Below, piece by piece: positions 14,730 through 34,130 of a stretch of DNA of 64,000 nt. Where the stretch lies: the sequence record PZ496581.1; one strand, written 5' to 3'. This stretch comes from a phage. Both the position numbers and the translations under genes were made by a program. Each line of letters begins with the position of its first letter. Positions within the stretch are counted from its first letter, which is position 1. The notes under the pieces were generated by a model that did no database searches, had not been told where the DNA came from, and saw nothing but the letters and a program-made list of their open reading frames with translations.

Positions 14730-15001
14730 TAGTAAGTTTCCTTCCAATAAGTTGTACCGTTTTCAGTGATTTCACGGAAGATACCATAGATAGGCATTTC
14801 ATCGCCGAGTTTTTCGTAAACGTAAACCACTTCAGTGTAGCATAAAAATTCGGTCCAGTTTTTCTGTACAACAACTAAATCAGGATTAAACAGAACATCT
14901 TCAAACTCATCGATGTTTGAATCAGTAGTTACGTTTTTAATGATTTGACGTTTCATAATATTCTCCTCTTGTTTTGATAGGTCTATAGTATCATAGACCA
15001 T
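14729..15001 (-). CDS. hypothetical protein
   Basis: 90 aa ORF with early promoter upstream. Confidence 0.5.
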
Positions 15002-15016
15002 AGTTGTTGTACATCA
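14983..15016 (-). promoter_or_regulatory. sigma70-type early promoter in stem-loop
   Basis: TGTACA-like -35, TACTAT -10; GGTCTAT...ATAGACC inverted repeat. Confidence 0.45.
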
Positions 15017-15538
15017 TTTTAGCAAAATAAAATCAACTTGTTCTGCCAATGAACGTCTGAACATTGATTGACAACTTCCGAGTATGAAATCAGGTGCTTC
15101 ATAGACCGCGATGTAGTATCCTTTAGCTTTCAAGAGTTCAACATCCACCTGGTCATCAAACCATGCATAAACCGCGTCAACACTTTCAAATCCAAAATAG
15201 AACCCTTGAGCCCAATCTTCACTCAATTCAAATGTGTGCTCAATTCTATAGTATCTTAAGATATTTTGTTCAAGGAGTTTGTCTTCATTTACTGTAGGAC
15301 GATTAGGGACGTTATAGTTGTCGCCGTGATGGTAGAAATTACCTGAGATTATTCCATGTTTATCAAGGAACTCCCATGTTTCTTCAGAGTTGTCGGTGCC
15401 CGACCAACCGTATGGTGAGCGAGGTTCTTTATTCCAAGAGGTTTCCCAAATTCTGACGGCTTTACCGTCTTCGATAGCAATTCCTGGTAATGATTCACGT
15501 TGAGTACAAAAACTACGTTCTACGCGGTAAACTAACAT
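15014..15538 (-). CDS. hypothetical protein
   Basis: 174 aa ORF with early promoter upstream. Confidence 0.5.
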   Translation of the reverse strand: MLVYRVERSFCTQRESLPGIAIEDGKAVRIWETSWNKEPRSPYGWSGTDNSEETWEFLDKHGIISGNFYHHGDNYNVPNRPTVNEDKLLEQNILRYYRIEHTFELSEDWAQGFYFGFESVDAVYAWFDDQVDVELLKAKGYYIAVYEAPDFILGSCQSMFRRSLAEQVDFILLK

Positions 15539-15562
15539 ATTATTCTCCTCTGGTTGATATGG

Positions 15563-15593
15563 TTATAATACCAAAACCAGAGGAGAAGTAAAC
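15563..15593 (-). promoter_or_regulatory. sigma70-type early promoter in stem-loop
   Basis: GTTTAC - 17 nt - TATTAT; CTCCTCTGGTT...AACCAGAGGAG. Confidence 0.55.
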
Positions 15594-15597
15594 AACT

Positions 15598-16017
15598 TTA
15601 TGCGAAAGCAGCTGGGCTATATTTTTTAATTTGGAATTCAGGAACTACCATGAACTGTCCAGCGAAAACGATGTTATAAAGCTTAACACCATCTTCTACC
15701 CAACGGTCGCTAATAAATCCAGCGATTTGCTTAGTTTTCCACGGTGTTCCATCAGTTGCCGCAGCAATAGTGAATTCATGGTCTTTTTCAACAGAAACTG
15801 ATCTGCATAGTCCCCATTTGAACGCTTTTTCTTCTGGTTCAATGAATTGGCTTGAGACATAACCAATGTTACCATCAGCGTCACGAACTTTAACTTCGTT
15901 ACGTCCAAAAACCGGATCACTCACAGAAAGAACTTCAACCAACTTCCCGGCAACTTTAGAGCGAGAAGCAACGGATACATATACATAATCACCTGTAGAG
16001 AGATTTACAATATTCAT
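15598..16017 (-). CDS. hypothetical protein, tandem paralog A
   Basis: 139 aa; shares SRSKxAGKLVEV, FKWxLC, GFISDxWVEDGxKLYNIVF with adjacent ORF. Confidence 0.5.
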   Translation of the reverse strand: MNIVNLSTGDYVYVSVASRSKVAGKLVEVLSVSDPVFGRNEVKVRDADGNIGYVSSQFIEPEEKAFKWGLCRSVSVEKDHEFTIAAATDGTPWKTKQIAGFISDRWVEDGVKLYNIVFAGQFMVVPEFQIKKYSPAAFA

Positions 16018-16026
16018 AATAATTCC

Positions 16027-16491
16027 TTAAGCTTTACGAGGAGACACATAGCGAGTGATTTCAGATTCTTTAACAACTCGGAAGTCACCTAAGAATACGA
16101 TATTGTATAACTTTTCACCATCTTCAACCCATTGGTCACTAATGAAGCCACACATAGTATCAGTTTTGCTTGGATAACCGTATTCGTCGATGTAATCAAA
16201 TTCTTTATCGGTTATAAATTCAACGCCTTTGCAAAGGGCCCATTTGAACTGTGTAGTAGGCTCAACGATATCGCTTGAAGCAAAGTGGGCACTTACACGA
16301 GTTTCCAAAAATTTAGGACTTACGTAAGCGTACTGAGTTTCAGTTTTTCCAGAACTAGGAATGATTCGAACTTTAACTTCTTTAATACGGCCCATGCCAT
16401 TAGTACGAAGTCCTACTACTTCAACCAGCTTTCCTGCAGCTTTAGAACGAGACGCTGTCGATACACGTTTAATTTCACCAATATTAATCAT
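16027..16491 (-). CDS. hypothetical protein, tandem paralog B
   Basis: 154 aa; paralog of 15598..16017. Confidence 0.5.
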   Translation of the reverse strand: MINIGEIKRVSTASRSKAAGKLVEVVGLRTNGMGRIKEVKVRIIPSSGKTETQYAYVSPKFLETRVSAHFASSDIVEPTTQFKWALCKGVEFITDKEFDYIDEYGYPSKTDTMCGFISDQWVEDGEKLYNIVFLGDFRVVKESEITRYVSPRKA

Positions 16492-16520
16492 ATTTTTTTC
16501 TCTCTTTGTTTAAGATAGAT

Positions 16521-16552
16521 TCATTATACTCCAACCATCCTTGGTTGTAAAC
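16521..16552 (-). promoter_or_regulatory. sigma70-type early promoter, repeated cassette copy 1
   Basis: GTTTAC - 18 nt - TATAAT; ttcattatactccaaccatccttggttgtaaac also at ~57981 and ~59001. Confidence 0.6.
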
Positions 16553-16557
16553 TGGTT

Positions 16558-17235
16558 TTATCGCTGTTTTACACTTAACGGGTCAGGATTCTCAGGGACA
16601 TCTTCAAGGCCAAGCGCATAACGCTGAGCATATTTTAACATCAAAATATCTTTAGCACAATCATGAATACTATCATGGGCAACGAATCCTTTTAGCGTAC
16701 CCATCGGTAATGGACACATACTTAATCCTCGTGTCAAAGAGTAAGCTTCGATTGCCGTACGAATATCACGTTGAGCCCAGAATTTAACAGGTTCTAATTT
16801 ATCAGTATCAATATCTGGTTCAAGAACACCTTCATCACGATAGAGGTCACGAATCAAATCGACCAAGATCGGGAAGTCAAAGCTCATACCACGGCACCAC
16901 ATCTGTGATTTCCATTGGTCAACTTTATTAGCTCGGCAATAGTCTAAAAAGATTTTAATGCCTTCAAGCGTAGTGACATCGTCTTCAGACGGAGCCAAGT
17001 TTTTACGCGCTTCAACCGATTGTTCTTTCCACCATTTCATAGTTGATTTAGCGAAAACTCGCTTCCCTTTCTGAGAAGCTAAATTAAATTTAATTCGCTT
17101 ACCTCGTTGAACAAGTTCTTCAAATGATTCAACAACTTCAGGGTCGGAATTATATGCAATAACCGCAAGGTCAATAACAGCCGCTTTTGATGTATTGCCG
17201 AATGTTTCAAAATCTATAATAACATCAGTGCTCAT
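16558..17235 (-). CDS. dexA: exonuclease A (DEDD 3'-5' exonuclease)
   Basis: 225 aa; IIDFETFG exo motif; T4 DexA size and position next to dda. Confidence 0.85.
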   Translation of the reverse strand: MSTDVIIDFETFGNTSKAAVIDLAVIAYNSDPEVVESFEELVQRGKRIKFNLASQKGKRVFAKSTMKWWKEQSVEARKNLAPSEDDVTTLEGIKIFLDYCRANKVDQWKSQMWCRGMSFDFPILVDLIRDLYRDEGVLEPDIDTDKLEPVKFWAQRDIRTAIEAYSLTRGLSMCPLPMGTLKGFVAHDSIHDCAKDILMLKYAQRYALGLEDVPENPDPLSVKQR

Positions 17236-17244
17236 AATTTTCTC

Positions 17245-18558
17245 TCAAATAAAATGGACGTCAAACCGACCACGAGTTGTGCCGACGTACAATAACTGTT
17301 TAGCTAATTCTGAATCAGCATAATGGATACACGGTGTATAAACAAAGGCCGTGTCAACAGACATACCCTGGGCCTTATGGAAGGTTGATACTGGTAGTGC
17401 CTTCACCTTAGTGAACATACGTTTAGCATCCCAGAATTCGCTCCATGGAGCTTTACCGCCTTTATTCCAGAATTTGTATGTTTCTGCGGTCTTAGCCAAA
17501 AACAAATTGAATTTATAAAGCTCTTCTTCAGAAGAAATAACCTTTATATCTTCGCGGATATATTCTTCATCATCCCCATATGTTTCTACTGTAAGATTCC
17601 AGTATCGTATCATATATTCGCCTGAAACACCACGTGCTTTAACGAATGTAGACGTTTCTACAGCATCTCGAATACGAACGAATTGCCCGTTATTGAAAAG
17701 CATTTCGGTCATATTTTTACCATCTAGCTTATATGTCTTAGTAAATGGCTCTTGTAGAACAATGACTTCGTCTTTAATAAATGGTTTTTCTGTTTCAAGA
17801 AGTTTTCGGCGAATAATTGAATTTAACTTATCCACCGACTTATTTGTGAATGCCATCATTCGATTTTCGAAAAGGTCTTCAGGAGTTTTAACGACGTTAA
17901 AATAGTTCATCATATACGATTTAAGGTCTGTATATCCATGAACACCGTGCCCATCAACTACTTTATCGTAAATCCATTTGCCATTACGAATATCAGTCGC
18001 AACATCAATAATTGGTGCATTGCTACGTTTAACTTCTGTAAGGTTGCATTGCACGAAGTCTTTGTGAGTGAAGAAAGGACTTAGATACGCAGTTGATTCG
18101 CCTGGGTCTACCGGTCGAATCTGACATCGGTCACCAATTCCAATTACTGTGCACCATTTAGGGATACTAGCTAACATTATTTTAAACAGAGAACGGTCGC
18201 ACATTGACGCTTCATCAAATAACAGTACACGACACAAGGCTAAGTCGGGAACCTTTTTCTGTTCAAACAATACGTTTTCTTCGTATGTAGTTGGGTTGAT
18301 TTTAAGAATGCTATGAATAGTCGATGCTTCTTGACCCGCAAGTTTGCTTAGAACCTTTTTAGCAGCATGTGTAGGGGCTGCTAAAATAATACCTGATTCT
18401 CCAGAAGAAATAAGGGCTTCAACGATGAATCTAGTAAGGGTTGTTTTACCTGTACCAGCGGGCCCATTAATAGTTACATGATGTTTCTTTTCTTTAATAG
18501 CGTTCATAACAACGTTGAAGGCGTTTTTCTGGCCTTCAGTCAAATCATCAAATGTCAT
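17245..18558 (-). CDS. dda: Dda DNA helicase (SF1B)
   Basis: 437 aa; Walker A INGPAGTGKTT, Walker B LLFDEASM; T4 Dda size. Confidence 0.9.
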   Translation of the reverse strand: MTFDDLTEGQKNAFNVVMNAIKEKKHHVTINGPAGTGKTTLTRFIVEALISSGESGIILAAPTHAAKKVLSKLAGQEASTIHSILKINPTTYEENVLFEQKKVPDLALCRVLLFDEASMCDRSLFKIMLASIPKWCTVIGIGDRCQIRPVDPGESTAYLSPFFTHKDFVQCNLTEVKRSNAPIIDVATDIRNGKWIYDKVVDGHGVHGYTDLKSYMMNYFNVVKTPEDLFENRMMAFTNKSVDKLNSIIRRKLLETEKPFIKDEVIVLQEPFTKTYKLDGKNMTEMLFNNGQFVRIRDAVETSTFVKARGVSGEYMIRYWNLTVETYGDDEEYIREDIKVISSEEELYKFNLFLAKTAETYKFWNKGGKAPWSEFWDAKRMFTKVKALPVSTFHKAQGMSVDTAFVYTPCIHYADSELAKQLLYVGTTRGRFDVHFI

Positions 18559-18866
18559 CGTAAAGTCCCTGCAATTGGAATACTAACAATACGGCCTGTG
18601 TCCAGGATTCGTTGATACAATCTTTGCGTCTCCGCATCTAGTTTAATGTGTTTCATTTCAAGCTTATTAAACCAGAACTTACGCGGAGTTTCGACCATTC
18701 TTAGAACTCCCATTTTTAAATCTGTTTTATACTGTGTTTTCAAAGTATCGAAAACTTTATCTGCAATATCCTTTCTAAAAAATACTGCAGGACGATGCTC
18801 ATCAAGTGGAACCGGGACAGTAAATCCTTCCATATCTCGATAAACTATTGCATATACATAAACCAT
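18555..18866 (-). CDS. hypothetical protein (dda.1 position)
   Basis: 103 aa ORF overlapping dda start. Confidence 0.5.
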   Translation of the reverse strand: MVYVYAIVYRDMEGFTVPVPLDEHRPAVFFRKDIADKVFDTLKTQYKTDLKMGVLRMVETPRKFWFNKLEMKHIKLDAETQRLYQRILDTGRIVSIPIAGTLR

Positions 18867-18868
18867 AA

Positions 18869-19615
18869 TTAACCTTTAATCAGTTGGAATAATGATGCGC
18901 TAAGTGGTAAGCCACGTTTCAATTTTAATTTACCAATGAAACCAATCTTTTCAAAACGTTGCAGACCTTGGATAACTTTATCATATGTATCGAAAAGCGA
19001 TTCAGCGTCAGTTAATTTAGTTTTAGTTTTCCAGTCAGAGCCTTTAAGAAGAACGTTGAGTTTAGTAAGTTCATGGCCTTCTGCTTGATGTGAGCCATTA
19101 ATGCGTGCTTTCAAAGCAACAATTCTAAGTTTAGATTCGTTAGATAAAGGTTGATTTTTCATCATGTTCGCCATATGCTTAACACGATTTTCACGTTTTG
19201 CTCGGATTTTTAAAATAGTGTCATAAACCTTTTTAATTTGGGCCCATTTCTTCTCGTCGAGATTAAGTTTCTCTACTTTACGGGCAGAAGGATTAGCGAT
19301 ACGTCTTGCAATGGCATCACGTTTCCTAATAAGTTCTTCTAATGTTAAATCAGAACGAGCCGTGTTATATTTTTTCTTAACTGGGATAACATTACCTTTA
19401 ATGTAGCCTATATCATTATTAAAACGTTCTAAGGATAATTTCTCACCTTCAACAGAGTTATTAAAAGATTCACCTGAGTAAGCGCAGACCTTTTGATCAA
19501 GAATGTTTTTAAGGTAATTAAAGTCTAAGTTAAAATCCTTAGAGCGTCTCTTCGCAGAAGCTCTGGTGTGGTCAAGACGTCGATTGATTTTGTTAATTTT
19601 ATTATTTGATAACAT
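18869..19615 (-). CDS. hypothetical basic protein (srd position)
   Basis: 248 aa; assignment by position only. Confidence 0.35.
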   Translation of the reverse strand: MLSNNKINKINRRLDHTRASAKRRSKDFNLDFNYLKNILDQKVCAYSGESFNNSVEGEKLSLERFNNDIGYIKGNVIPVKKKYNTARSDLTLEELIRKRDAIARRIANPSARKVEKLNLDEKKWAQIKKVYDTILKIRAKRENRVKHMANMMKNQPLSNESKLRIVALKARINGSHQAEGHELTKLNVLLKGSDWKTKTKLTDAESLFDTYDKVIQGLQRFEKIGFIGKLKLKRGLPLSASLFQLIKG

Positions 19616-19768
19616 AATATTTTCCTCTGTCTTACGGACGTTAAGGTCATTTAGCTGATAAGCTTATAATATCATGCCCTCAGGTAGTGTACACTCTTTT
19701 TTCATAAAATGCTTTAATTTTTTATGTGTTATAATGGTTCTGAGTTCCATCCGGTTATTCCAATTCAG

Positions 19769-20377
19769 TCAGTAACTGACAATAGACAGATTCCAGATTG
19801 TATAACGTCCATCTTGAATAATAGAATCTACACGTAGTGTAGTCCCTATAGGGAGCATAAATTCACATTCGTCAGATATAAGTCTAGCATTAGACCGTCT
19901 TGTCGCTTCAGGGAAAGCTCCATTGAACTCACAAGATGGCGCAGCCAGAATCATGTTAAGCATATGTTCACGGAAGTTGAAAGCAAATGGTGCATCTTTG
20001 ATGCAGAACATATTAAATGTTCCGTAAAAATTATACGAAGCAAAGTTACGTGCTACACCGAACACTGGGCTGAAGCTCATTACTCTGTCAAATTTAATAA
20101 TACTACCAATGCCTTTATCATCGAGTGTGGCCATAGTTTTCTTAGAGATTCCACGATACATTGTCTCAGGAACAGAAGACGACCAATTTCTACGAACAAT
20201 TGCACTTAAATCTTGTTGGATGCTATCGGGCTTGTTTTCCATACACTGCCACAGTACACTTTGTTCAATGTCGCTGAATTGCTCATCGATTTTGTACTGA
20301 AGCATATCTTGATAATCTGGGCATTGAGCACGACGAACCATTTCTTCAATTTCACACTCGTTATACGGCATAAACAT
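19769..20377 (-). CDS. modA: ADP-ribosyltransferase ModA-like
   Basis: 202 aa; paralogous to next ORF; conserved YRG...S...E pattern of R-S-E ARTs; T4 mod locus position. Confidence 0.6.
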   Translation of the reverse strand: MFMPYNECEIEEMVRRAQCPDYQDMLQYKIDEQFSDIEQSVLWQCMENKPDSIQQDLSAIVRRNWSSSVPETMYRGISKKTMATLDDKGIGSIIKFDRVMSFSPVFGVARNFASYNFYGTFNMFCIKDAPFAFNFREHMLNMILAAPSCEFNGAFPEATRRSNARLISDECEFMLPIGTTLRVDSIIQDGRYTIWNLSIVSY

Positions 20378-20403
20378 TTAGGTTTCTCCTCTGGATGATA
20401 GGT

Positions 20404-20435
20404 CTATAATATCATCGTCCTTGTTGTTTGTACAC
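20404..20435 (-). promoter_or_regulatory. sigma70-type early promoter (modA)
   Basis: GTGTAC -35, TATTAT -10. Confidence 0.5.
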
Positions 20436-21016
20436 TAAAAATTCAACATTTTCAAATGAATGATTTTGTATAATCGAGATAAAGGGTCATATTCTAAGTC
20501 TTCAATTTCCACAATCTCAAATCGAGAGATACCTGAGACCATGTACTCTTGTTCAGATTCAATCATATCTAGGACATCGATACGAGTTTCTTCCATAACA
20601 TGCTTAGGGTTCTTTCCGGCGAGTACAATGTTAACCATGTTTTGGTAGTAATCAAAAATGAATGGAGCATTCCTGAGACTAAGAATAGTGTACGTCTGAT
20701 ATTCCCATCTCCCGGAGAATTGACGAGCTGTACTGAAATCAGTTGTGAACGATGTTACTCGTCCAGGAGACCAATGGCATCCAACAGAAAGAAGGGAAAG
20801 ACGTTCTACTTCTTCTGGAGTTACACCACGGTAGAGTTCTACTGGTACTGTAGAAGTCATATGCTTACGAACAAGATGGTCTAATTCATAGTGGAAATCC
20901 GGGTCTTCCTTAGAATCGGTGCAAGCCCAGAGAATGTTTTGTTCTTGGCGGGTGAATTTGCTATCAATCAGATTTGTTAGGTATTCACGTTCTTGAAGTT
21001 CAGATTGACATGTCAT
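20435..21016 (-). CDS. modB: ADP-ribosyltransferase ModB-like
   Basis: 193 aa; paralog of 19769..20377. Confidence 0.6.
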   Translation of the reverse strand: MTCQSELQEREYLTNLIDSKFTRQEQNILWACTDSKEDPDFHYELDHLVRKHMTSTVPVELYRGVTPEEVERLSLLSVGCHWSPGRVTSFTTDFSTARQFSGRWEYQTYTILSLRNAPFIFDYYQNMVNIVLAGKNPKHVMEETRIDVLDMIESEQEYMVSGISRFEIVEIEDLEYDPLSRLYKIIHLKMLNF

Positions 21017-21042
21017 GATAGACCTCCATTTAAAGATAAGCC

Positions 21043-21071
21043 TATCATAACACGAGAGGAGGGAATGTAAA
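21043..21071 (-). promoter_or_regulatory. sigma70-type early promoter (modB)
   Basis: GTTTAC - 17 nt - TATGAT. Confidence 0.5.
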
Positions 21072-21232
21072 CTACTTTTTAAGCTTTCCTACTAAAGGTC
21101 CATCAGGACCAGGTTGTTCTAACATGAATAAGGATGCTTTAAAAAGCAATGTCAACCCTTTCACCATTCGATACCATGTCTCAAAGTCTTTTTCCTTGAT
21201 TTCTAGTAAGAATTTCTCTTTAAATTTCTCTT

Positions 21233-21421
21233 TCATTTCCAAGGACTCCATGGTGGAGGGTCGTCATAATAAGAGGCAAGGTCTTTCAGGGCTTCGACAG
21301 GTAAACTAAAGCCGTGTCGTTGTATAATACTATCTAGTTCATCAACAAGTTCACTACGATGCACTTTAAGAGCCTCAACTTCAGGCTCGTCAAACATACT
21401 CATAAGGTCCATATTATTCAC
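21233..21421 (-). CDS. hypothetical protein
   Basis: 62 aa ORF. Confidence 0.4.
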   Translation of the reverse strand: MNNMDLMSMFDEPEVEALKVHRSELVDELDSIIQRHGFSLPVEALKDLASYYDDPPPWSPWK

Positions 21422-21878
21422 CTAAATAAAAACTAGGCTGCTCGGAGAATGTTTCTAGCACTACACCTTTTGTCTTAAAAAATTTCCAAATAGCTCGTTG
21501 CAAATGGATTAAATCTGCTAATGATGTAATAAAGTATTTTTTGGCAAAATACTTATGGTCTCGCTTTTCAAACAAGTCTAAACGCTTTTCAGGATTCACA
21601 TAAACGGCATTTTCCGTAGATTCATAACCTAAGTCCTTTATGCCTTCTTCAAGACTAAACGGAGAATTTTTAGAACGAGTAATAGCTCCAACTCGCTCTA
21701 CACGAATTTTGTAACCTTTAGGAATCTGCAATTTGCAGAATTCTTCTACGATATATTGCGGATTATTTAGACTTTTGTTAATGAGGATAGCTATTTCTAG
21801 TGGAGTCTTATCTTCCACTGGTATATGTTTAAATGACTTGGCTTCAAGCAAATACATTTTAAATAGCATAGCATCCAT
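21414..21878 (-). CDS. hypothetical protein (mrh region)
   Basis: 154 aa ORF. Confidence 0.45.
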   Translation of the reverse strand: MDAMLFKMYLLEAKSFKHIPVEDKTPLEIAILINKSLNNPQYIVEEFCKLQIPKGYKIRVERVGAITRSKNSPFSLEEGIKDLGYESTENAVYVNPEKRLDLFEKRDHKYFAKKYFITSLADLIHLQRAIWKFFKTKGVVLETFSEQPSFYLGE

Positions 21879-22057
21879 TATAATTTCCTCGATGGTTCAC
21901 CCATATAAAGTTTTACAATACGTTCGCCTTCATCTTCGACGAGCTTTTCTTCATGTTTCTGGAATTCTTTAGCCATATTCTCTTCAAGAACATCCAGCCA
22001 ATCTTCTGGACCGACACCATCGTCCCAGCTTTTAAACCATCTTACCAATCTGTTCAT
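21878..22057 (-). CDS. hypothetical protein
   Basis: ORF trimmed to ATG (MNRLVRWF...). Confidence 0.35.
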   Translation of the reverse strand: MNRLVRWFKSWDDGVGPEDWLDVLEENMAKEFQKHEEKLVEDEGERIVKLYMGEPSRKL

Positions 22058-22254
22058 TCGCAGCTCCCTGAGCTTGAACCACAATCAGAATAACTTGACC
22101 CAGAATCACCAGGCCAAGACGATACGTATGAATGATTATAACTTGAAGAGCTTGAAGCATTAACATGTTTTGTTTTTGGACGAACAACTTCTTCCATCAT
22201 TCCGTCACCGATATATTCCCAACTTTTTTCGTGTGTATCAGGAATAGGCATCAT
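22054..22254 (-). CDS. hypothetical protein with Ser/Gly/Cys-rich C-terminus
   Basis: ORF trimmed to MMPIPDTHEK...; low-complexity SSSSSYNHSYVSS...GSSSGSCE tail. Confidence 0.35.
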   Translation of the reverse strand: MMPIPDTHEKSWEYIGDGMMEEVVRPKTKHVNASSSSSYNHSYVSSWPGDSGSSYSDCGSSSGSCE

Positions 22255-22267
22255 ACCTTCGCCTGGT

Positions 22268-22495
22268 TTAACAGCAAACAACTTCTTCAGTATCGTAAGC
22301 ATTAATTGTTCCTCGAACAAAACGAACACCACCATCATCCCAGCGGATTTCGGCATTAAATTTGACGTCTTCACCATCCATCATGAATGAGTGTACGACT
22401 ACATCATCATAATATCCAAGACCGTACTTTAATGAAACTTCTTGAGCAATCAAAGCACCTAATGTGTTATTAGGTTTAATCCAACGATTTAACAT
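22268..22495 (-). CDS. hypothetical protein
   Basis: 75 aa ORF with early promoter and GAGGAG SD upstream. Confidence 0.45.
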   Translation of the reverse strand: MLNRWIKPNNTLGALIAQEVSLKYGLGYYDDVVVHSFMMDGEDVKFNAEIRWDDGGVRFVRGTINAYDTEEVVCC

Positions 22496-22518
22496 ATTGT
22501 TCTCCTCTTGAGTAAGTA

Positions 22519-22552
22519 AGATATCTTAACACAGTTTTTAGTGGTTGTAAAC
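22519..22552 (-). promoter_or_regulatory. sigma70-type early promoter
   Basis: GTTTAC - ~18 nt - TAAGAT, GAGGAG SD downstream. Confidence 0.45.
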
Positions 22553-22561
22553 TGTAGAAAC

Positions 22562-22588
22562 AAAAAAAAAGGAATCCCGAAGGATTCC
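22562..22588 (-). terminator. rho-independent terminator after soc
   Basis: GGAAUCC-UUCG-GGAUUCC hairpin followed by U9. Confidence 0.75.
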
Positions 22589-22597
22589 TTAAATTAT

Positions 22598-22834
22598 TTA
22601 ACCATTTACTGGTGTAGGGGTAAACATTGCAGCGTTCTTAGTTTTCCAGTCAGCTGCATCAGAAACTACAGTAGAATAAGCTGCCTTTTCTGATGGAAAG
22701 ATTTGGTAATGAGAATCTGCAATCCGATGTTCGTTTGAATAAATCTCAAACGGCACAGAAACTTCCATACCTTTAACTTCTTTACTTTCACCAGCAGGAT
22801 GCGTAAAGGTTTTGATGTTTACATAACCACCAAT
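22598..22834 (-). CDS. soc: small outer capsid protein Soc; no canonical start codon
   Basis: Hand-translated ...GGYVNIKTFTHPAGESKEVKGMEVSVPFEIYSNEHRIADSHYQIFPSEKAAYSTVV...; AAGGAG SD then ATT ATT GGT; below ORF-track cutoff. Confidence 0.7.
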   Translation of the reverse strand: MGGYVNIKTFTHPAGESKEVKGMEVSVPFEIYSNEHRIADSHYQIFPSEKAAYSTVVSDAADWKTKNAAMFTPTPVNG

Positions 22835-22871
22835 AATTAACTCCTTTGTTGTTTAATTACAGGTGTATTTA

Positions 22872-23087
22872 TTATGCATATTTCTTGTCGATATAAAAAT
22901 GACCACCGCCTTTAACAAAGACCCAGAATAGATTTCTATCGTCTGTATCCCGGCAGTAAAAATCATCTAACCGGAAATAGTTTTCTTCAGGGAATTCAAG
23001 ATGTCGCCCGAGTTCTATCGCATCAGAACCGAACGCTTTAGTAGCGGGACGACCATCATCGTCCCATTTCTTGAAATTGAATTGCAT
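22872..23087 (-). CDS. hypothetical protein
   Basis: 71 aa ORF between soc and 56. Confidence 0.45.
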   Translation of the reverse strand: MQFNFKKWDDDGRPATKAFGSDAIELGRHLEFPEENYFRLDDFYCRDTDDRNLFWVFVKGGGHFYIDKKYA

Positions 23088-23608
23088 TAATAACCTCGGT
23101 CTTGGCGAGCGAAGTTTTCAGCATTCTTCAGATAATACAGTTTGAAGATTTCTTCAGCAGAAAGTCCCAGACCTTGGAACATATTTAGAACGAAATGCAG
23201 AATATCAATCATTTCAAATTTAATTTCAAGCTGGTCTTCAGGAGACAGTTCATCGATACGACGATTTCGATATTCAGCATGTTGTGCTTTCCATGGCTTC
23301 CATACAGAGCTAGCGGCTTTCTCACCATTGCTCATACCGCCAAGTGAAGTCAGCAGTTCACGGAATTCATCATCAATATAATCTTTCTGATTACGCAGCC
23401 AATCAACAACATCGCCAGCAGTAGCCAATTCATCAGGATGTTTGTTATGTTCAGGCTTGTCATTTGCCAGACGAACCTGTAAAGATTTCTGCATATCAAG
23501 CATTACCTGCAGTGGGTCTTTATCTTCGTGAATCAGAGCATTAAAATAAGCTTCTTCTGCTTTATCAACACCAGAAATAAGTTGTGAACATTCGTTAAAG
23601 TGCGCCAT
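23087..23608 (-). CDS. 56: dCTP pyrophosphatase (dCTPase/dUTPase)
   Basis: Trimmed to ATG (MAHFNEC...); ...LQVMLDMQ...ETAGDVV.W...DDEFRELLTSLG...EEIFKLYYLKN.ENFARQDRGY matches T4 gp56 as recalled. Confidence 0.9.
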   Translation of the reverse strand: MAHFNECSQLISGVDKAEEAYFNALIHEDKDPLQVMLDMQKSLQVRLANDKPEHNKHPDELATAGDVVDWLRNQKDYIDDEFRELLTSLGGMSNGEKAASSVWKPWKAQHAEYRNRRIDELSPEDQLEIKFEMIDILHFVLNMFQGLGLSAEEIFKLYYLKNAENFARQDRGY

Positions 23609-23696
23609 TATTTTTCCTTTCAATTCAGTATAAGAGAGTTAATTCTAACATTAATTTTATAAAGCGTAATAAATAATAGGTAACTAAGGAGATATT

Positions 23697-23894
23697 ATGT
23701 TTAAACTTCCATCGTTAATCAACGCTATTAAAGGCAATAAAAAGAAAACTGCTATCGCTGCAATAGTTGTAGGTGGCATTATTTCATGGAACTTCGGGAT
23801 TGCACCATTGTTAGTTGCCCATGGTGTTATGGTTCCTTCTGTTCCATTGGATACTGTAGTTGATTTGGCCTTTGCTATTATAGGGCTTGTTTAA
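23697..23894 (+). CDS. small hydrophobic protein, plus strand
   Basis: 65 aa; AAGGAG 5 nt upstream of ATG; only convincing plus-strand ORF in window. Confidence 0.4.
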   Translation: MFKLPSLINAIKGNKKKTAIAAIVVGGIISWNFGIAPLLVAHGVMVPSVPLDTVVDLAFAIIGLV

Positions 23895-24913
23895 ATCTTC
23901 GAATAACGAGATAATCTCATTTTAGCATGCAACCCACTTGAAATATTCTGTTTCATATATTCTAAAATTTCTTGTGGTGTTGCATTTTCTTTCATTACCA
24001 TATCATTCACATCCTTTGATCTCCATGGAGCTCGGTCCCAGAACATGACACGTTCGCCTGCATTAACTAATCGCTTCATGCGAGCTATAGTATCCGGATG
24101 CCTAGGTTCATTATCCATTACCCATACCCGACGTTCTTTAAATGGTACCACATCTAAATCTATTGAGCCGCCTGTAATAGCGATTGCATTGGGTATGAAT
24201 AAACTATCAATAGGACCTTCCATTACCCAGACGTCTCCTTCCTTAACACGTTCAACACCATAAATTTTTGTTGCAGATTCAAAAGCTTTAATAGTGATAT
24301 ATTTTTGAGGAGCATCTTTACGAAGTGCACGTCCTTGGAATGACTCGGCCTTCCCATCTTTATTAAAAATAGGAATAACTAAACGCGGTTCAGGAATCTC
24401 TTTCTTATATGTGCCAGGTTGAATCTTGTTGACCAATTTAGGCCATTCTAATGTGAACCATAATCTGTTCCATGATTCTTTAGGAATGCATCTAGACTTA
24501 ACATATTTCACAATAGGATGCTCTTCAGGCAGCTTGTCCAGACGAGAACAAGACGGCAAAGAATTTATAGTCTTTTTTTCCGGCTCCGGCTTAGCTTCAG
24601 GAACCTTTTCAATCTTTGGTTCCATTCTAGCTTTTTCTTTACGAACTTCCATTAGATATTCGCGATAAAGCTCTTCATCATACTCTTTTAAGTATCCGGA
24701 AATTGTATTGTGGTATTGACAGTTATAGCAATGTACATTACCAGGAGTACCGCCATAATACCATCCGCGAGCTTTCATTGCATCTGTCTGGGAGTCGCCA
24801 CAAACTGGACAACGAAACGTTAATTTAAATGTGCTTGAATTATTGATTTGTCTAAAACGAGGGAGGTGAGAAAACGCACGATAAGCAAATTCATTATCTA
24901 TCCATTCAGCCAT
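23891..24913 (-). CDS. 61: DNA primase
   Basis: 340 aa; N-terminal zinc ribbon FRCPVCGDS...HCYNC; T4 gp61 size and position. Confidence 0.9.
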   Translation of the reverse strand: MAEWIDNEFAYRAFSHLPRFRQINNSSTFKLTFRCPVCGDSQTDAMKARGWYYGGTPGNVHCYNCQYHNTISGYLKEYDEELYREYLMEVRKEKARMEPKIEKVPEAKPEPEKKTINSLPSCSRLDKLPEEHPIVKYVKSRCIPKESWNRLWFTLEWPKLVNKIQPGTYKKEIPEPRLVIPIFNKDGKAESFQGRALRKDAPQKYITIKAFESATKIYGVERVKEGDVWVMEGPIDSLFIPNAIAITGGSIDLDVVPFKERRVWVMDNEPRHPDTIARMKRLVNAGERVMFWDRAPWRSKDVNDMVMKENATPQEILEYMKQNISSGLHAKMRLSRYSKI

Positions 24914-24952
24914 AGTATTCTCCAGAGGCCTTAAATTAATAAGGCCATCTTA

Positions 24953-25447
24953 TCACAACTTATTAATATTTACTTTAATTCGCTTTCTTTTCTTGGAAGG
25001 AATTTGTTCGGGACCTTTATTTACGACTGCACCTGTAGTTGTTCCTGATGCAATAGCTTGAGGACTGCCGCCTGAATCACCAGCAACCATATCCTCAAAT
25101 AAAGGGAGTTCTTTAAATATTTCTTTCTGTTGTTCTTCCGTAATGTTATAGCGTGAAGCTACAGCACTCCAAGCAGACATCATTGATGCCATTCCATTAA
25201 GACCTGGAACAGTGTTCATCATTCGCTTCATTGAACGAACTGAAGCATGAAAAGGTGTATAAGCCGCTTTCTCTTCAGGAGTGGAAGGGCGTTTAAGAAC
25301 ACTTCCACGTTCATCGATGATTTTGGCTTCGTATGCTTTCCATTCGGTAAAAGGTTTTTGCATTAGTCGAATAAACTTATATGCGTAAACAGAATCTATT
25401 GCAGTGTTAATAATACCCATAGGTACCTCCTGAGTATATTTAATCAA
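24953..25447 (-). CDS. hypothetical protein (61.1 position)
   Basis: 164 aa ORF. Confidence 0.5.
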   Translation of the reverse strand: MIKYTQEVPMGIINTAIDSVYAYKFIRLMQKPFTEWKAYEAKIIDERGSVLKRPSTPEEKAAYTPFHASVRSMKRMMNTVPGLNGMASMMSAWSAVASRYNITEEQQKEIFKELPLFEDMVAGDSGGSPQAIASGTTTGAVVNKGPEQIPSKKRKRIKVNINKL

Positions 25448-25637
25448 TTACAAAGATTGCTTTGTCACCATTTATATCTGTGACTTCATATGTAGTGCCT
25501 TCATACTGTGGAATATTCCAAATTACACCGTCATTAGCTTTTACGCTAATATGGCATTGGTGTTTTGAAACAACTTCATAATCTTCAAAACTTGTAAAAA
25601 CACTAATTTTAGAACCAGTGCAAATTGCAGTAGTCAT
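25440..25637 (-). CDS. hypothetical protein
   Basis: 65 aa ORF. Confidence 0.45.
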   Translation of the reverse strand: MTTAICTGSKISVFTSFEDYEVVSKHQCHISVKANDGVIWNIPQYEGTTYEVTDINGDKAIFVID

Positions 25638-25638
25638 T

Positions 25639-26298
25639 TTAACCTCGATTCATAAATGCATTAAATATTTGGTCATCAACAGAAATTTCTAATTCGACTT
25701 CAATTGCTTCAGCCTTTTCTTCAGGTGGTAATTCGTATCCACACACTACAATTTTTTCATCGATATCAAAATATACAGAAGCAATACGATTAATGTTATT
25801 TTCAGTTAAGTCTAATTCAACATCAACATCTTTTTGGCCTACACTTAGAGGATAACTAATACGGGTTATTTTATTATCTTTAACAAAGAGTCCACCAACA
25901 TACTCTGTACTACGTTTGAAGTTTACACGTTTCCGAATTGAAAGATATGATGCATCTTTACCGTGAGCTCGGCTCATAGCACATAATGAATAGCTAGAAT
26001 AAGAGATGTCAAATCCTACACCTTCAATATGAGCCAACGTGTCATGATTAAACCAATTATAATCATATGCCAAATCCATTATATTGTAATATGTGAAAGG
26101 CACAGGATTAACATCATATGTTGTACCTTTAAAATCTGCCCAGGCAACGATTTCGTTATCTTTAACAATTACAAAAATTACACCGAGATGGTATCCGTTA
26201 TTATTTTCATTCGGCGTTATATTATAACATTGTGCATTAGGAAATTTACCATATTTAAATGGCGCATTTTTGTGCATATAATAAATCATATTATTCAC
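25639..26298 (-). CDS. hypothetical protein (61.2 position)
   Basis: 219 aa ORF. Confidence 0.5.
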   Translation of the reverse strand: MNNMIYYMHKNAPFKYGKFPNAQCYNITPNENNNGYHLGVIFVIVKDNEIVAWADFKGTTYDVNPVPFTYYNIMDLAYDYNWFNHDTLAHIEGVGFDISYSSYSLCAMSRAHGKDASYLSIRKRVNFKRSTEYVGGLFVKDNKITRISYPLSVGQKDVDVELDLTENNINRIASVYFDIDEKIVVCGYELPPEEKAEAIEVELEISVDDQIFNAFMNRG

Positions 26299-26584
26299 CT
26301 GTGATTTCGGTTACGATATCTTTGTTATCGAAATTAGGGTCACAATACAAAACATAGTTGTACTGCATGATACCGCCAGACTTAAGTTGTTCAACAACTT
26401 TATTAACCATATTAGGACGGTCTCGTTTAGTGATGTTCATGATATCAGAGAAGATTTGTTGTTCAACATCTTCTTGATTTGCAGTCATTGACCACTCACA
26501 GAGGTCTTTATCATAACCTGCCGTAACTGGAGCCGGTGCACATGATACTGCAAGTAAGATTGCTGCCAATGATAACTTTTTCAT
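26291..26584 (-). CDS. sp: Spackle-like periplasmic protein
   Basis: 97 aa with N-terminal signal peptide; T4 Sp size and 61.3 position. Confidence 0.6.
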   Translation of the reverse strand: MKKLSLAAILLAVSCAPAPVTAGYDKDLCEWSMTANQEDVEQQIFSDIMNITKRDRPNMVNKVVEQLKSGGIMQYNYVLYCDPNFDNKDIVTEITGE

Positions 26585-26609
26585 TTTAACTCCTTAGTTG
26601 ATTTGATAG

Positions 26610-26642
26610 GACTACTATACTATAGTCCATCTATAATGTAAA
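26610..26642 (-). promoter_or_regulatory. sigma70-type early promoter in stem-loop (sp)
   Basis: GTTTAC - 18 nt - TATAGT; GGACTACTATA...TATAGTCC. Confidence 0.5.
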
Positions 26643-26647
26643 CAAGT

Positions 26648-26896
26648 TTATTCTTTTTCGCGAATAATAATTACTTGTTGAGGCTGCTGAGCCGATTTCT
26701 TTTCGGCAACGATAGACCAAATTAAAGTTCCAATCCAACCAACCATCGTCCAGTTAAAGAGTAAAGATACAAAGAAAATTGCTGTTGTGCTTTTTGTGCC
26801 ACGAATAAGTGCGATTACCCAAGGCAACATGTAAATGATGATTGAACCAATACCTGCGATTAAAACTGCTACTGAACTAGCTACGAATAATTCCAT
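26648..26896 (-). CDS. imm: superinfection immunity protein Imm-like
   Basis: 82 aa, two TM segments, GWIGTLIW motif typical of Imm family as recalled. Confidence 0.55.
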   Translation of the reverse strand: MELFVASSVAVLIAGIGSIIIYMLPWVIALIRGTKSTTAIFFVSLLFNWTMVGWIGTLIWSIVAEKKSAQQPQQVIIIREKE

Positions 26897-26931
26897 GTTA
26901 ATTTCCTCTTGATTTGTTATGTTTATAGTAT

Positions 26932-26954
26932 CTTATTTTAACTTTGGTGTAAAC
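26932..26954 (-). promoter_or_regulatory. sigma70-type early promoter (imm)
   Basis: GTTTAC - 18 nt - TACTAT. Confidence 0.45.
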
Positions 26955-26957
26955 CAA

Positions 26958-27326
26958 TTAATTAAATTTGTTTAAACGTTCAATACACTGGACGTAGTTA
27001 TTCGCGATTTGTTTCTGGGTAGGCTCTTTACCGGTTGTTTCAACATAGCGAATGAATGCGATTTCAGTAGCCTGTAAGCAATGTTCTTTAACGCGTTGTT
27101 CTTTTGACAATGCTACAGTATCAGAGTCACGATAACGTTGAGCATGGGCATCAGCTTGAATCATTCGATTACCTACAGTAACCGGGTCTTCCACTTCAAC
27201 TTTAGGTTGGTCGTACTGTTTAACATTCGGATTGTAAATCAATTGGCCGACGTTATTAGGGATAAAGCCATGGGCACCACATCCGGTTAATCCAAACACC
27301 ATTGCTAAAGCGATTAATTTTTTCAT
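26958..27326 (-). CDS. putative lipoprotein
   Basis: 122 aa; signal peptide with lipobox-like LTGC. Confidence 0.5.
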   Translation of the reverse strand: MKKLIALAMVFGLTGCGAHGFIPNNVGQLIYNPNVKQYDQPKVEVEDPVTVGNRMIQADAHAQRYRDSDTVALSKEQRVKEHCLQATEIAFIRYVETTGKEPTQKQIANNYVQCIERLNKFN

Positions 27327-27354
27327 TTCAATTTCCTCTGTAGTTGATAGAAAG

Positions 27355-27383
27355 ATAGTAACACAGTATGTGGTGCTTGTAAA
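27355..27383 (-). promoter_or_regulatory. sigma70-type early promoter
   Basis: GTTTAC - 17 nt - TTACTAT. Confidence 0.45.
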
Positions 27384-27386
27384 CAG

Positions 27387-27599
27387 CTATTTTAAACTTT
27401 TGCGAAATTTGCGTTTTTCTTGACGAATCTGTCGTTTAGTCGGACGTACAGCAAATTTAACGAAGTCCACTTTGCCGTGTGGAAACTTTTCAGATGCTTC
27501 GCAGTCCATCATTAGTTCCCATCCTTCCAGAATAAGAGCTTTCCATTGTGTAGTTGATGCAAATTCGTATGTTGATGGTTTAAACACAGTTGAATACAT
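27387..27599 (-). CDS. hypothetical small basic protein
   Basis: Trimmed to MYSTVF...; C-terminus VRPTKRQIRQEKRK resembles 55345..55515. Confidence 0.45.
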   Translation of the reverse strand: MYSTVFKPSTYEFASTTQWKALILEGWELMMDCEASEKFPHGKVDFVKFAVRPTKRQIRQEKRKFRKSLK

Positions 27600-27600
27600 A

Positions 27601-27792
27601 TTATCCTCTGAAATCAGCTTCAAAAACTTTCTCGTCATTAACAAATGCTTTAACTAATGCTTTGTTCACTTCAGCAAGTTGTACCGTAACCCACTCGATT
27701 TCTTCGCGATCACCTGATAACATGATATCTTTAGTGAACATCTCACCGCTTTTAAACCAACCGATAAAAGTAACTTTAGTTAATTTGCTCAT
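27601..27792 (-). CDS. dmd: Dmd antitoxin
   Basis: ~63 aa from internal ATG; ...FIGWFKSGEMFTKDI...AEVNKALVKAFVNDEKV...RG matches T4 Dmd as recalled. Confidence 0.8.
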   Translation of the reverse strand: MSKLTKVTFIGWFKSGEMFTKDIMLSGDREEIEWVTVQLAEVNKALVKAFVNDEKVFEADFRG

Positions 27793-28106
27793 ATTTCCTC
27801 GCAAAATGCCCATTCAGCGTGATAAACTGTAGCACCTTTAGTATTATTCATTTGAACTACGTCTACCGGAGAAATTACTCGATAGAGACGTGGTTCACCT
27901 CCATAAGAGCGTGCTGCTCGTCCTGCATAAATCTTTGCTAAACCGATATCTTCAGTAAAGAATACACGATCCAAGTTTTTCTTACGTCCAGTTTCAGACA
28001 GAACTCCTGTTTCCTCAGGAGGACAAAGCATGTTTTCGATGTTAGCTGAACTACTTGAACCGTGATAAAAAATCTTAAATTCTGCTTTACAATCGATGGT
28101 TTTCAT
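27789..28106 (-). CDS. hypothetical protein with H-G-S ... Y-F motif (possible mini ADP-ribosyltransferase-like fold)
   Basis: 105 aa; FYHGSSS...DRVFFTED...IYAGRA pattern reminiscent of PARP/Tpt1 NAD-binding core. Confidence 0.45.
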   Translation of the reverse strand: MKTIDCKAEFKIFYHGSSSSANIENMLCPPEETGVLSETGRKKNLDRVFFTEDIGLAKIYAGRAARSYGGEPRLYRVISPVDVVQMNNTKGATVYHAEWAFCEEI

Positions 28107-28128
28107 TTTGTTCTCCAGTAGTTGATAG

Positions 28129-28161
28129 GACTATAATAACACAACTACTGGAGAAGTAAAC
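28129..28161 (-). promoter_or_regulatory. sigma70-type early promoter in stem-loop
   Basis: GTTTAC - 17 nt - TATTAT; 12-bp inverted repeat CTCCAGTAGTTG / CAACTACTGGAG. Confidence 0.55.
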
Positions 28162-28536
28162 TTAAAAACGTAATTTAGATATATCTGCGTTGATTTCGTT
28201 TTGGTTTGCATCGTATGCAATTAAACGAACCGCTTTAGATGGGTCATTCAATGCATAGAAATGATGGAACATTGCTCGAACGATATCACCATTTACGAGT
28301 TCTACCTGGATAGGAGAACCTTTTTCGAGTTGGAAATGTTCATAAGCTTTGATGGTTCGTAGATAATCAAGTTTTTGATTTCCGGCTCCAACTATTTGTA
28401 CGATACGTTTGCCCATGTTTTCCATACGAGATACAATAGTTTTAGGAGCAAGAATAACGTAGGTTGCCAGTGGAGAAACTACTTCAACAGTTGTGTTTTC
28501 GGTGATTGCAGTAAAAATTGCTTGAGACATATTCAT
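28162..28536 (-). CDS. hypothetical protein
   Basis: 124 aa ORF with early promoter. Confidence 0.5.
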   Translation of the reverse strand: MNMSQAIFTAITENTTVEVVSPLATYVILAPKTIVSRMENMGKRIVQIVGAGNQKLDYLRTIKAYEHFQLEKGSPIQVELVNGDIVRAMFHHFYALNDPSKAVRLIAYDANQNEINADISKLRF

Positions 28537-28565
28537 AATGTTTTCCTCTTGGTTGGTGTAAGTAC

Positions 28566-28594
28566 ATCATATCATGCCTAGAGGAAGATGTAAA
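28566..28594 (-). promoter_or_regulatory. sigma70-type early promoter
   Basis: GTTTAC - 18 nt - TATGAT. Confidence 0.5.
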
Positions 28595-28600
28595 CCCCGA

Positions 28601-28624
28601 AAGGAGACCGAAGTCTCCTTTTTT
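28601..28624. terminator. UUCG/CGAA hairpin after gene 41, terminator-like on both strands
   Basis: GGAGAC-cgaa-GTCTCC; T6 follows on plus strand, A6 precedes. Confidence 0.45.
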
Positions 28625-28625
28625 A

Positions 28626-30068
28626 TTAAAATTTTAACTCATTGGCTAAGCTATCTAGGTCAGCACGTGTTGCTTTGGCTTTACCTACGCGTTCCGTACG
28701 ATTCACCTCTGCCTGACGCATCTGAGCACCTGCGTTTTCATTTACTGTGTTAGGTGTGTTCATGCCTTCTTGCTCAATCTCAATCCATTTCTGGTTGCCT
28801 TTACGTACACCCATCAGGAATTTATTCCACTTATTCTTATCACCATATCGTGATTTGATTTGTTTGATAAGTTGTTGTTCAGCTTGTGCAAGTTCTTCGG
28901 TTTCAATTACGGCCAACATGAAATCTGCCGTTGCTGGTAAACCTGCTGATTCTGCGATATCACTCATGTTCATATCCGAAGCATCCCATGCTGCACGTCC
29001 TACTTGAGCTGCAGTCCATAGAACCGTTTCAGATTCTACTGCTAATGCACGAAGTTCTTCTGCGATAGCTTTAACTAATGTGTAGCTATTTTCAGTGTAA
29101 ACTCTGATACGACAAGACCCACAAATACCTAAGTAATCAACCATGATTACAGATGGCACAAAGTTCTTCTTAAGTTTTAACTCATTAAGCAATGCACGGA
29201 ATGTATTAGCATTAGCTCCACCAGTAGGATACTGTTTAACTACTAAACGTCCTAATGTGGATTTTGAACGCCATTTTTCCATCTTGGCTTTATATTCAGC
29301 ATAAGATACGTTACCATCATCGATATCATCGAGTGATACGTCAAGCATGTTTGCATCTATACGCTTAGCACAAACTTCTTCAGCCATTTCCATGGAAATA
29401 TAAAGAACATTATGACCTGTTTGAAGATAATCTGCAGCAAGTGAACAAAGGCCTAAAGATTTACCAACGTTAACACCGGCCATTAAAACGTTTAGTGTAC
29501 CTGTTTCAGCACCACCTTTAGTGATTTTATTCAAAATGTTTAATTTGAACGGGACCTTACGTGCTTTATTTAGATAAGAAAGCCAGCGTGCTTCGTAGTC
29601 TTCCATCCAGTCATGTCCAACATAACTATCGAACGAAATTGAAAGTGCTTGACGCATAATATCAGGAATAGCTCCTACGTCAGGCATTTTCTTGTTACGT
29701 TGTTCTGGAGGTAGTTCAGCATTAGACTGAATCTCAATGATTTTGGATGTAGCATTATACATCGCTTTTTGCTGGACATATTTCTCAGTTTCTTTAACCA
29801 ACCATTCATGGTCTTCAGGAGTATCAGCCAATTTTTCAATTAGGTCTGAAGTTCCTTTATATTCGGCTTCAGTTAAAGAACTGTTATCTAAAGCCACCTT
29901 TAACGCATTGATAGATGGCATTGCATTATATTCGTTAACGTGGCTCTTTATAATTTTAAAGACATTTTTTGCCGGTCCACGCTCAAAATACTCAGAATCC
30001 ATATAAGGCCAGACCTTAGAAAAATAAGCCTGGTCATATACGAGATGAGACAAAATAATTTCTACCAC
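28626..30068 (-). CDS. 41: replicative DNA helicase (DnaB-like)
   Basis: 480 aa; Walker A GVNVGKS; T4 gp41 size and position. Confidence 0.9.
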   Translation of the reverse strand: MVEIILSHLVYDQAYFSKVWPYMDSEYFERGPAKNVFKIIKSHVNEYNAMPSINALKVALDNSSLTEAEYKGTSDLIEKLADTPEDHEWLVKETEKYVQQKAMYNATSKIIEIQSNAELPPEQRNKKMPDVGAIPDIMRQALSISFDSYVGHDWMEDYEARWLSYLNKARKVPFKLNILNKITKGGAETGTLNVLMAGVNVGKSLGLCSLAADYLQTGHNVLYISMEMAEEVCAKRIDANMLDVSLDDIDDGNVSYAEYKAKMEKWRSKSTLGRLVVKQYPTGGANANTFRALLNELKLKKNFVPSVIMVDYLGICGSCRIRVYTENSYTLVKAIAEELRALAVESETVLWTAAQVGRAAWDASDMNMSDIAESAGLPATADFMLAVIETEELAQAEQQLIKQIKSRYGDKNKWNKFLMGVRKGNQKWIEIEQEGMNTPNTVNENAGAQMRQAEVNRTERVGKAKATRADLDSLANELKF

Positions 30069-30077
30069 GATAACTCC

Positions 30078-30440
30078 TTAAAAGAATTTAAATTTTTTCT
30101 TGGTTCGTTCATTAAAAGCTTGTTGTACTTGCATTGTAACACATTTTTCAACATGTGGTGCAAGTTCTGCTTTTCTGTCCTGGTCAAGAACTGCAAAGTC
30201 CATTACGATTTTACCATCAACCCAGTCTAGTTTTGTAATATAGACTATATGATGGGAACCGTCTTCAAGTGTAATCAGAATCTCTTGAATGACATTTTCC
30301 ATTGCTGAACGGATAATTTTAAGAGATTCATTAAACACTCGTTCTTTGCGAATGTCCTCCCCTTCCGAAGAAGGGGATTCATCAACGATTTCTAGATTTA
30401 AATCATCGAGATTATTCATCGAAATCTTCCATTTCGTCAA
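30078..30440 (-). CDS. hypothetical protein (gene 40 position)
   Basis: 120 aa ORF between 41 and uvsX. Confidence 0.45.
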   Translation of the reverse strand: MTKWKISMNNLDDLNLEIVDESPSSEGEDIRKERVFNESLKIIRSAMENVIQEILITLEDGSHHIVYITKLDWVDGKIVMDFAVLDQDRKAELAPHVEKCVTMQVQQAFNERTKKKFKFF

Positions 30441-31584: not shown

Positions 31585-31637
31585 TGTATTTTTCCATAGG
31601 CATCATTATATTTTACTCATGTTTAAAAGATAAGATG

Positions 31638-31664
31638 ATTATATACTAAGGGTTATACAGCATT
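31638..31664 (-). promoter_or_regulatory. possible MotA-dependent middle promoter (uvsX)
   Basis: AATGCTGTA (MotA-box-like) - 12 nt - TATAAT. Confidence 0.3.
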
Positions 31665-31682
31665 TAAAACTTTAAATGGCTC

Positions 31683-32231: not shown

Positions 32232-32232
32232 T

Positions 32233-33848: not shown

Positions 33849-33890
33849 GTTTACCTCAATACAATTTATTATATACTCAATTCGTAAAGC

Positions 33891-34130
33891 TTATTTGAAT
33901 TTCTTGACAATGTTGATATAACGTAAAGCTTCAGCATCGATACTTCCAAGAACACTATGAAGAAATGCATCAGCGTAGTATTCCAATTGAACAGGTTCTT
34001 TAATCACTTTAGCCGCTTTAGTTTCAAACAGGCCCATCAGGGCCTGTTTAAGAATTTGTTCATTAGTGTTCAGTTTCATAGTCAAAATCTCTTCATTAAG
34101 TTGGTGGTTAAAAGTTTTTCTAGAAATCAT
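33891..34130 (-). CDS. hypothetical protein
   Basis: 79 aa ORF. Confidence 0.4.
   Translation of the reverse strand: MISRKTFNHQLNEEILTMKLNTNEQILKQALMGLFETKAAKVIKEPVQLEYYADAFLHSVLGSIDAEALRYINIVKKFK

Follow-up and report, generated by a model that had tools for sequence, protein, structure and literature searches.

In the stretch of phage DNA analysed here (sequence record PZ496581.1; 64,000 nucleotides, hereafter the window), the soc gene begins with ATT in place of the ATG found in its relatives, and this is probably a private loss-of-start allele, null or hypomorphic, of a dispensable decoration gene. An ordinary knock-out or knock-down mutation is the most likely explanation; a base-call error is less likely, and an evolved AUU start is not favored. 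The loss of the soc start is real as a fact of the sequence and is biologically ordinary; it opens no new mechanism.

The conceptual Soc protein matches the Pfam Soc family PF16855 over residues 3-66 (71.4 bits versus a cutoff of 27, E=9e-20) and matches RB69 Soc (PDB 3IG9) across residues 1-78 (E=1.7e-46). The gene follows gene 56 (dCTPase) and precedes mrh.2, all on one strand, as in the RB69 and T4 annotation, and no second soc copy was found within the 64-kb window. Over the 20-kb stretch around soc, identity is about 97.9% with several Mosigvirus genomes, the nearest GenBank phages, and 97.4% with RB69. Judged from these identities, the window is a Mosigvirus, that is, an RB69-like T-even (T4-family) phage, itself absent from the collections searched. 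With RB69 and Mosigvirus Soc (PDB 3IG9/3IGE; PF16855) the window shares the 78-codon frame, in which about 91% of the residues (71 of 78, first codon counted) are identical in RB69 Soc, and it also shares the Shine-Dalgarno sequence (SD), the hairpin, the terminator and the gene 56/mrh.2 placement of soc. It differs in having ATT as the first codon and two private residue changes; from the commonest Mosigvirus Soc allele, the window protein departs only at G17S, at S77N and at the start. A further difference from RB69 and most other Mosigvirus phages is the ORF directly upstream, a cassette otherwise found in Gaprivervirus VR25 and Dhakavirus 04086.

The features that define the soc start are:

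22598..22834, minus strand: soc coding frame, 78 codons plus TAA at 22598-22600, with codon 1 being ATT, not ATG.
22832..22834, minus strand: site of the start codon, here ATT; base 22832 is the one that differs from relatives, being T on the minus strand (G in relatives) and A on the plus strand (C in relatives).
22841..22846, minus strand: Shine-Dalgarno sequence AAGGAG, with a 6-nt spacer to the ATT at 22834; invariant in every aligned relative.

Around the soc start the minus strand reads GCA TAA TAAATACACCTGTAATTAAACAACAAAGGAGTTAATT ATT GGT GGT TAT GTA AAC ATC AAA; divided into codons, the upstream stop codon TAA (22855..22853) is followed by ACA ACA AAG GAG TTA ATT (22837..22835) ATT (22834..22832) GGT GGT TAT GTA AAC. 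Past the two ATT codons the Soc frame continues as GGYVNIKTFTHPAGESKEVKGMEVSVPF and runs to the TAA at 22600..22598. The original prediction, made from the sequence alone, was that this soc homolog lacks an ATG, GTG or TTG start, and indeed none occurs in frame from the upstream TAA to codon 23 (Met23, ATG at 22768). As it stands, soc has no full-length ORF that could be expressed from a canonical start, and since the frame has no such codon before Met23, an ORF list gives only a 56-aa ORF, 22598..22768. The same prediction placed AAGGAG 6-9 nt from both ATT codons; counted from the last base of the SD, the spacing holds for the second ATT (6 nt) but not for the first, which is 3 nt away. The 6-nt spacer puts AAGGAG within working range of the AUU, as at AUU starts of the infC/pcnB type. 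Two out-of-frame codons that the prediction did not mention, TTG (22833..22831) and GTG (22830..22828), overlap the soc start site.

Comparison with the soc start in related phages, which had been proposed as a check, showed that the relatives have ATG exactly where the window has ATT: the second ATT (22834..22832) occupies the same alignment column as the ATG of all relatives aligned. The ATT allele was then surveyed by megablast with a 55-mer centred on the changed base, such that each 28-nt seed must include that base. The ATT 55-mer was found in 0 of 50,697 phage records, while the ATG control 55-mer was found in 209, of which 104 were identical across all 55 nt. Three IMG/VR contigs and one metagenome contig carry the surrounding 30-mer, all four with ATG; the exact ATT 30-mer was not found in the metagenome and genome collections. 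The start codon of T4 soc is also ATG. The proposed reading of apparent ATT initiation as a property of the gene is therefore not supported, given ATG in 209/209 phage records, in 4/4 contigs and in T4, and ATT nowhere else. Neither is the AUU conserved among orthologues, as it would be for a start of the infC/pcnB type (0 ATT versus 209 ATG records). With ATT in no other record and ATG in all sampled relatives, ATT is private to the window genome and is derived from ATG. A start-codon point mutation, one of the options offered in the original prediction, agrees with the single G to T change of the ancestral ATG (22832; C to A on the plus strand). The phage JN02, whose annotation is feature-less over soc, was considered as another start mutant and rejected: it has the ATG and an intact gene, and its record is sparsely annotated. 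Independent assemblies of this phage were sought by exact-protein look-up, which gave no record for either the 56-aa ORF or the 71-aa ORF upstream of soc.

The expression signals around soc are the following:

22828..22865, minus strand: hairpin spanning the site of translation initiation; its loop holds the SD and its 3' arm the start codon.
22865..22853, minus strand: 5' arm of the hairpin, CACCUGUAAUUAA.
22852..22841, minus strand: hairpin loop of 12 nt, holding the SD.
22840..22828, minus strand: 3' arm of the hairpin, UUAAUUAUUGGUG, with the start codon; also written UUAAUUAU[G]GGUG.
22866..22873, minus strand: late-promoter-like motif AATAAATA, matching at 7 of 8 positions the TATAAATA of most Mosigvirus relatives.
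22559..22590, minus strand: intrinsic terminator 3' of soc, with a 9-bp stem AAGGAATCC/GGATTCCTT, a UUCG loop, then a T-run.

The sequence TATAAATA is the T4 late promoter, and the T4 soc initiation region has been reported to be sequestered in a helix (PMC3014915). The window resembles T4 soc in this translational control: a TATAAATA-type motif, here matching at 7 of 8 positions, stands directly 5' of an inverted repeat whose loop and 3' arm contain the SD and the start codon, respectively. It differs from T4 in its arm sequences, in the promoter AATAAATA, and in the window base, which turns a U.G pair of the stem into a U.U mismatch through the G to U change. The hairpin folds at -10.8 kcal/mol in the ATG version of the relatives (z -3.5) versus -7.9 kcal/mol in the window; the equivalent T4 soc hairpin, with arms CAUGUAAUU/AAUUACAUG, gives -8.6 kcal/mol when folded alone rather than in consensus with the Mosigvirus sequences. 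By analogy with gene e and I-TevI (PMC3014915), the hairpin would form in long early transcripts and mask the start, and late transcripts, whose 5' ends would lie just past the late promoter, would be made without the 5' arm. On the same analogy, the Mosigvirus soc hairpin is a putative regulatory element. The architecture, kept in the sampled relatives and in T4, confirms 22834..22832 as the authentic soc start. At the other end of the gene, the terminator is annotated as such in the relatives KAW3E185 and MM02. Its stem-loop, 22569-22590, is flanked by A/T runs and gets a terminator score on either strand; it may be bidirectional. Past the soc terminator, before the next gene is reached, the window has a private intergenic 1-nt deletion at 22520, near a sigma-70-like promoter match at 22551..22523.

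Directly upstream of these signals is an additional reading frame:

22872..23087, minus strand: ORF of 71 aa in a different frame, its end separated from the soc start position by 37 nt.

The first two bases of AATAAATA are the last two of this ORF's TAA stop codon. Decay of the promoter, with AATAAATA as a second hit on soc expression, was considered and rejected, since VR25 and 04086 also carry AATAAATA before an ATG-initiated soc. Going by this distribution, AATAAATA is part of the upstream 71-aa ORF cassette, and the 7/8 late-promoter variant appears to be tolerated naturally. In tblastn the 71-aa ORF is 95.8% identical to VR25 (Gaprivervirus) and 88.7% identical to 04086 (Dhakavirus); it is found in 10 phage records in total, has distant homologues in Citrobacter phage, and gives a weak Pfam match to DUF7422 (26.6 bits, just under the cutoff of 27). 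Most Mosigvirus phages carry soc.1/soc.2 or nothing at its place. Mosigvirus homology resumes exactly at the conserved late-promoter/hairpin, which suggests this block as a recombination junction.

Two other changes are found within the soc frame:

22786, minus strand: G17S, GGT to AGT, a private non-synonymous change; Gly17 is invariant (as synonymous GGC/GGT) in the 17 other soc alleles examined.
22605, minus strand: S77N, AGT to AAT, a private non-synonymous change; S/G variation occurs at position 77 among relatives.

Over the rest of soc (234 nt), 12 phage records match the window with exactly these two mismatches, and there is no better match. In a collection of 15 billion proteins the consensus Soc protein is found on 143 contigs. 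The S17 and N77 variants, the double variant and the 56-aa fragment are all absent from it, and a search of the same proteins for an ATG ancestor carrying S17 and/or N77 gave no example. The 90%-identity cluster of the consensus Soc (P0010, P0015) also lists 75-aa proteins that are homologues not of Soc but of the mrh.2-like ORF 22268..22495, which seems to be an artefact of the cluster table and not a biological signal.

In the relatives, soc is under purifying selection: 21 of its 32 variable codons vary only synonymously. The window's three private soc changes include no synonymous one, versus 12 non-synonymous and 33 synonymous private coding changes elsewhere (Fisher P = 0.026, from three events only). 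At the rate of the neighbouring genes, 0.15 non-synonymous changes would be expected in soc (Poisson P = 0.011 for at least two extra, again from few events), and the neutral expectation for 237 nt on the window's branch is 1.8 changes, near the three observed. As a sequence pattern, this fits a gene whose function was lost some time ago and that has since been drifting without constraint. With position 77 naturally variable and residue 17 aligned to an Asn in T4 Soc, both substitutions could also be harmless polymorphisms in a working protein.

One G to T transversion would have converted the ancestral ATG to ATT in an otherwise typical Mosigvirus soc. The late mRNA would still load ribosomes at the strong SD AAGGAG, and at the start position the AUU would compete with an overlapping out-of-frame UUG, which should win and which opens a short frame:

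22819..22833, minus strand: predicted out-of-frame mini-ORF of 4 codons, UUG GUG GUU AUG UAA.

The UUG of the mini-ORF was made by the G to T change itself and is 7 nt from the SD; the relatives read UGG. In E. coli, AUU initiates at 1-2% of the AUG level, and UUG belongs to the 10-100% class of start codons (10.1101/063800), so that in-frame initiation at the soc AUU would be expected at only about 1-2% of the AUG level. AUU mRNAs reach 40-75% of AUG activity in vitro under some conditions (PMC5499595), and residual Soc could therefore exceed 1-2%. In T4, each capsid carries 870 copies of Soc, a dispensable protein; null mutants are viable and grow normally, losing viability at pH 10.6 (PMC3012670), and capsids without Soc are less stable when pH or temperature is high (PMC3012670, PMC10580926). 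Soc output in the window phage would probably fall far under about 870 copies per capsid; with output that low the virions would be essentially Soc-less, and the loss would be tolerated because Soc, which only adds stability to the capsid at extremes of pH and temperature, is not needed for growth. Read most economically, the phage is viable and Soc-deficient, or close to it. The predicted phenotype, viable with a Soc-less capsid, is that of laboratory soc-null T4, made with amber or deletion mutations and used in capsid display (PMC3012670, PMC10580926); the window differs in having a start-codon missense change, in belonging to a different genus, and in that the AUU may leak.

Could the change be an error in the sequence? 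If so, the true codon would be ATG and the T at 22832 a consensus error of sequencing or assembly, the plus-strand CCCA having been read as CCAA. Cytosine is hypermodified in T-even phages, and the error would fall on such a cytosine. The allele is unique across all collections searched, and both the start change and G17S are homopolymer-boundary shifts. Private substitutions were counted by aligning positions 15000-35000 of the window with eight Mosigvirus genomes (nine genomes, 20 kb). The window has 57 private substitutions, with a transition-dominated spectrum, and the other genomes have 18-166. Boundary shifts make up 9 of these 57, versus 44 of 598 in the eight relatives (Fisher P = 0.03), about a twofold excess; however, the relatives L008 and L011 have fractions similar to the window's, and the excess is for that reason not decisive. 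Further against an error, the window's coding DNA has no private single-base indels (frameshifts) across the 20 kb, and 73% of its private coding changes outside soc are synonymous. That split, 33 synonymous to 12 non-synonymous in the 20 kb, is, as far as substitution patterns tell, what genuine evolution under purifying selection would leave, rather than random error. Among the 655 lineage-private substitutions in the nine Mosigvirus genomes over the 20 kb, only the soc change hits a start codon; a 170-kb genome has roughly 270 start codons, and the estimated chance that a lone random error lands in one of them is about 0.5%. By these measures the assembly looks clean and reliable. A consensus error is thus unlikely, though it deserves weight; the clean assembly, together with the two further private non-synonymous changes in soc, favors a real mutation.

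If the mutation is real, the AUU might still be functional, with Soc deliberately kept at a low level, as for infC and pcnB, the E. coli genes confirmed to start at AUU (10.1101/063800, PMC5499595), and with sub-stoichiometric decoration being advantageous in this lineage. The window soc is like these genes in having AUU at the start position behind an SD, here a perfect AAGGAG at an optimal 6-nt spacing; the remaining frame is intact, without stops or frameshifts, and AUU initiation in E. coli is measurable (10.1101/063800, PMC5499595). But the AUU of infC, on which IF3 autoregulation depends, is conserved across bacteria (PMC5499595), whereas the AUU of the window is private to one genome, is conserved in none of the relatives, and replaces a universally conserved AUG; no regulatory logic like IF3 autoregulation is apparent, and a stronger out-of-frame UUG overlaps the AUU. 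Moreover, Soc forms a cage of trimers clamping the hexamers (PMC3012670), and at 1-2% occupancy it would be unlikely to stabilise the capsid; the extra private non-synonymous changes may also point to relaxed rather than maintained constraint. We consider a functional AUU of this kind very unlikely. It would be equally hard to credit, and if anything more so, that the ATT is real and maintained with Soc at a few percent of normal, possibly tuned by the UUG mini-ORF, so that sparse decoration is a selected trade-off; a maintained AUU would, if true, make soc the first structural gene of a T-even phage with a natural AUU start. Alternatively, a truncated 56-residue Soc made from the internal AUG at 22768 (Met23) might partly replace the full-length protein, 22598..22768 on the minus strand being the sole canonical-start ORF remaining in the soc frame. 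This AUG has no SD at a workable distance, as the nearby AAGG ends 1 nt before it. The product would be missing the conserved N-terminal third of the domain, since it lacks residues 1-22, with the GYVNIKTF that T4 and RB69-type Soc share and that the Pfam model covers; the exact 56-aa protein is on record nowhere. Partial replacement by such a fragment is extremely improbable.

Under the preferred reading, an ordinary start-codon mutation of soc, this Mosigvirus may be naturally Soc-deficient. If so, the stability of its capsid would be affected, in storage, at alkaline pH and on heating, which would bear on therapy preparations, and its Soc-binding sites would be left free for in-vitro display. 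Automatic gene callers will drop a gene such as this soc or call a meaningless 56-aa fragment; in annotation, soc should instead be flagged as start-codon-mutated. The loss of the soc start is also a small data point for the view that decoration proteins are easily lost.

Elsewhere in the alignment, at about 16492-16557, the window has only a 66-nt spacer where 8 of 8 aligned Mosigvirus relatives have extra DNA, about 550 nt in most; in most of them this DNA holds an annotated ORF of about 495 nt (a motB.1-like 'transcriptional regulator') between motB and dexA.
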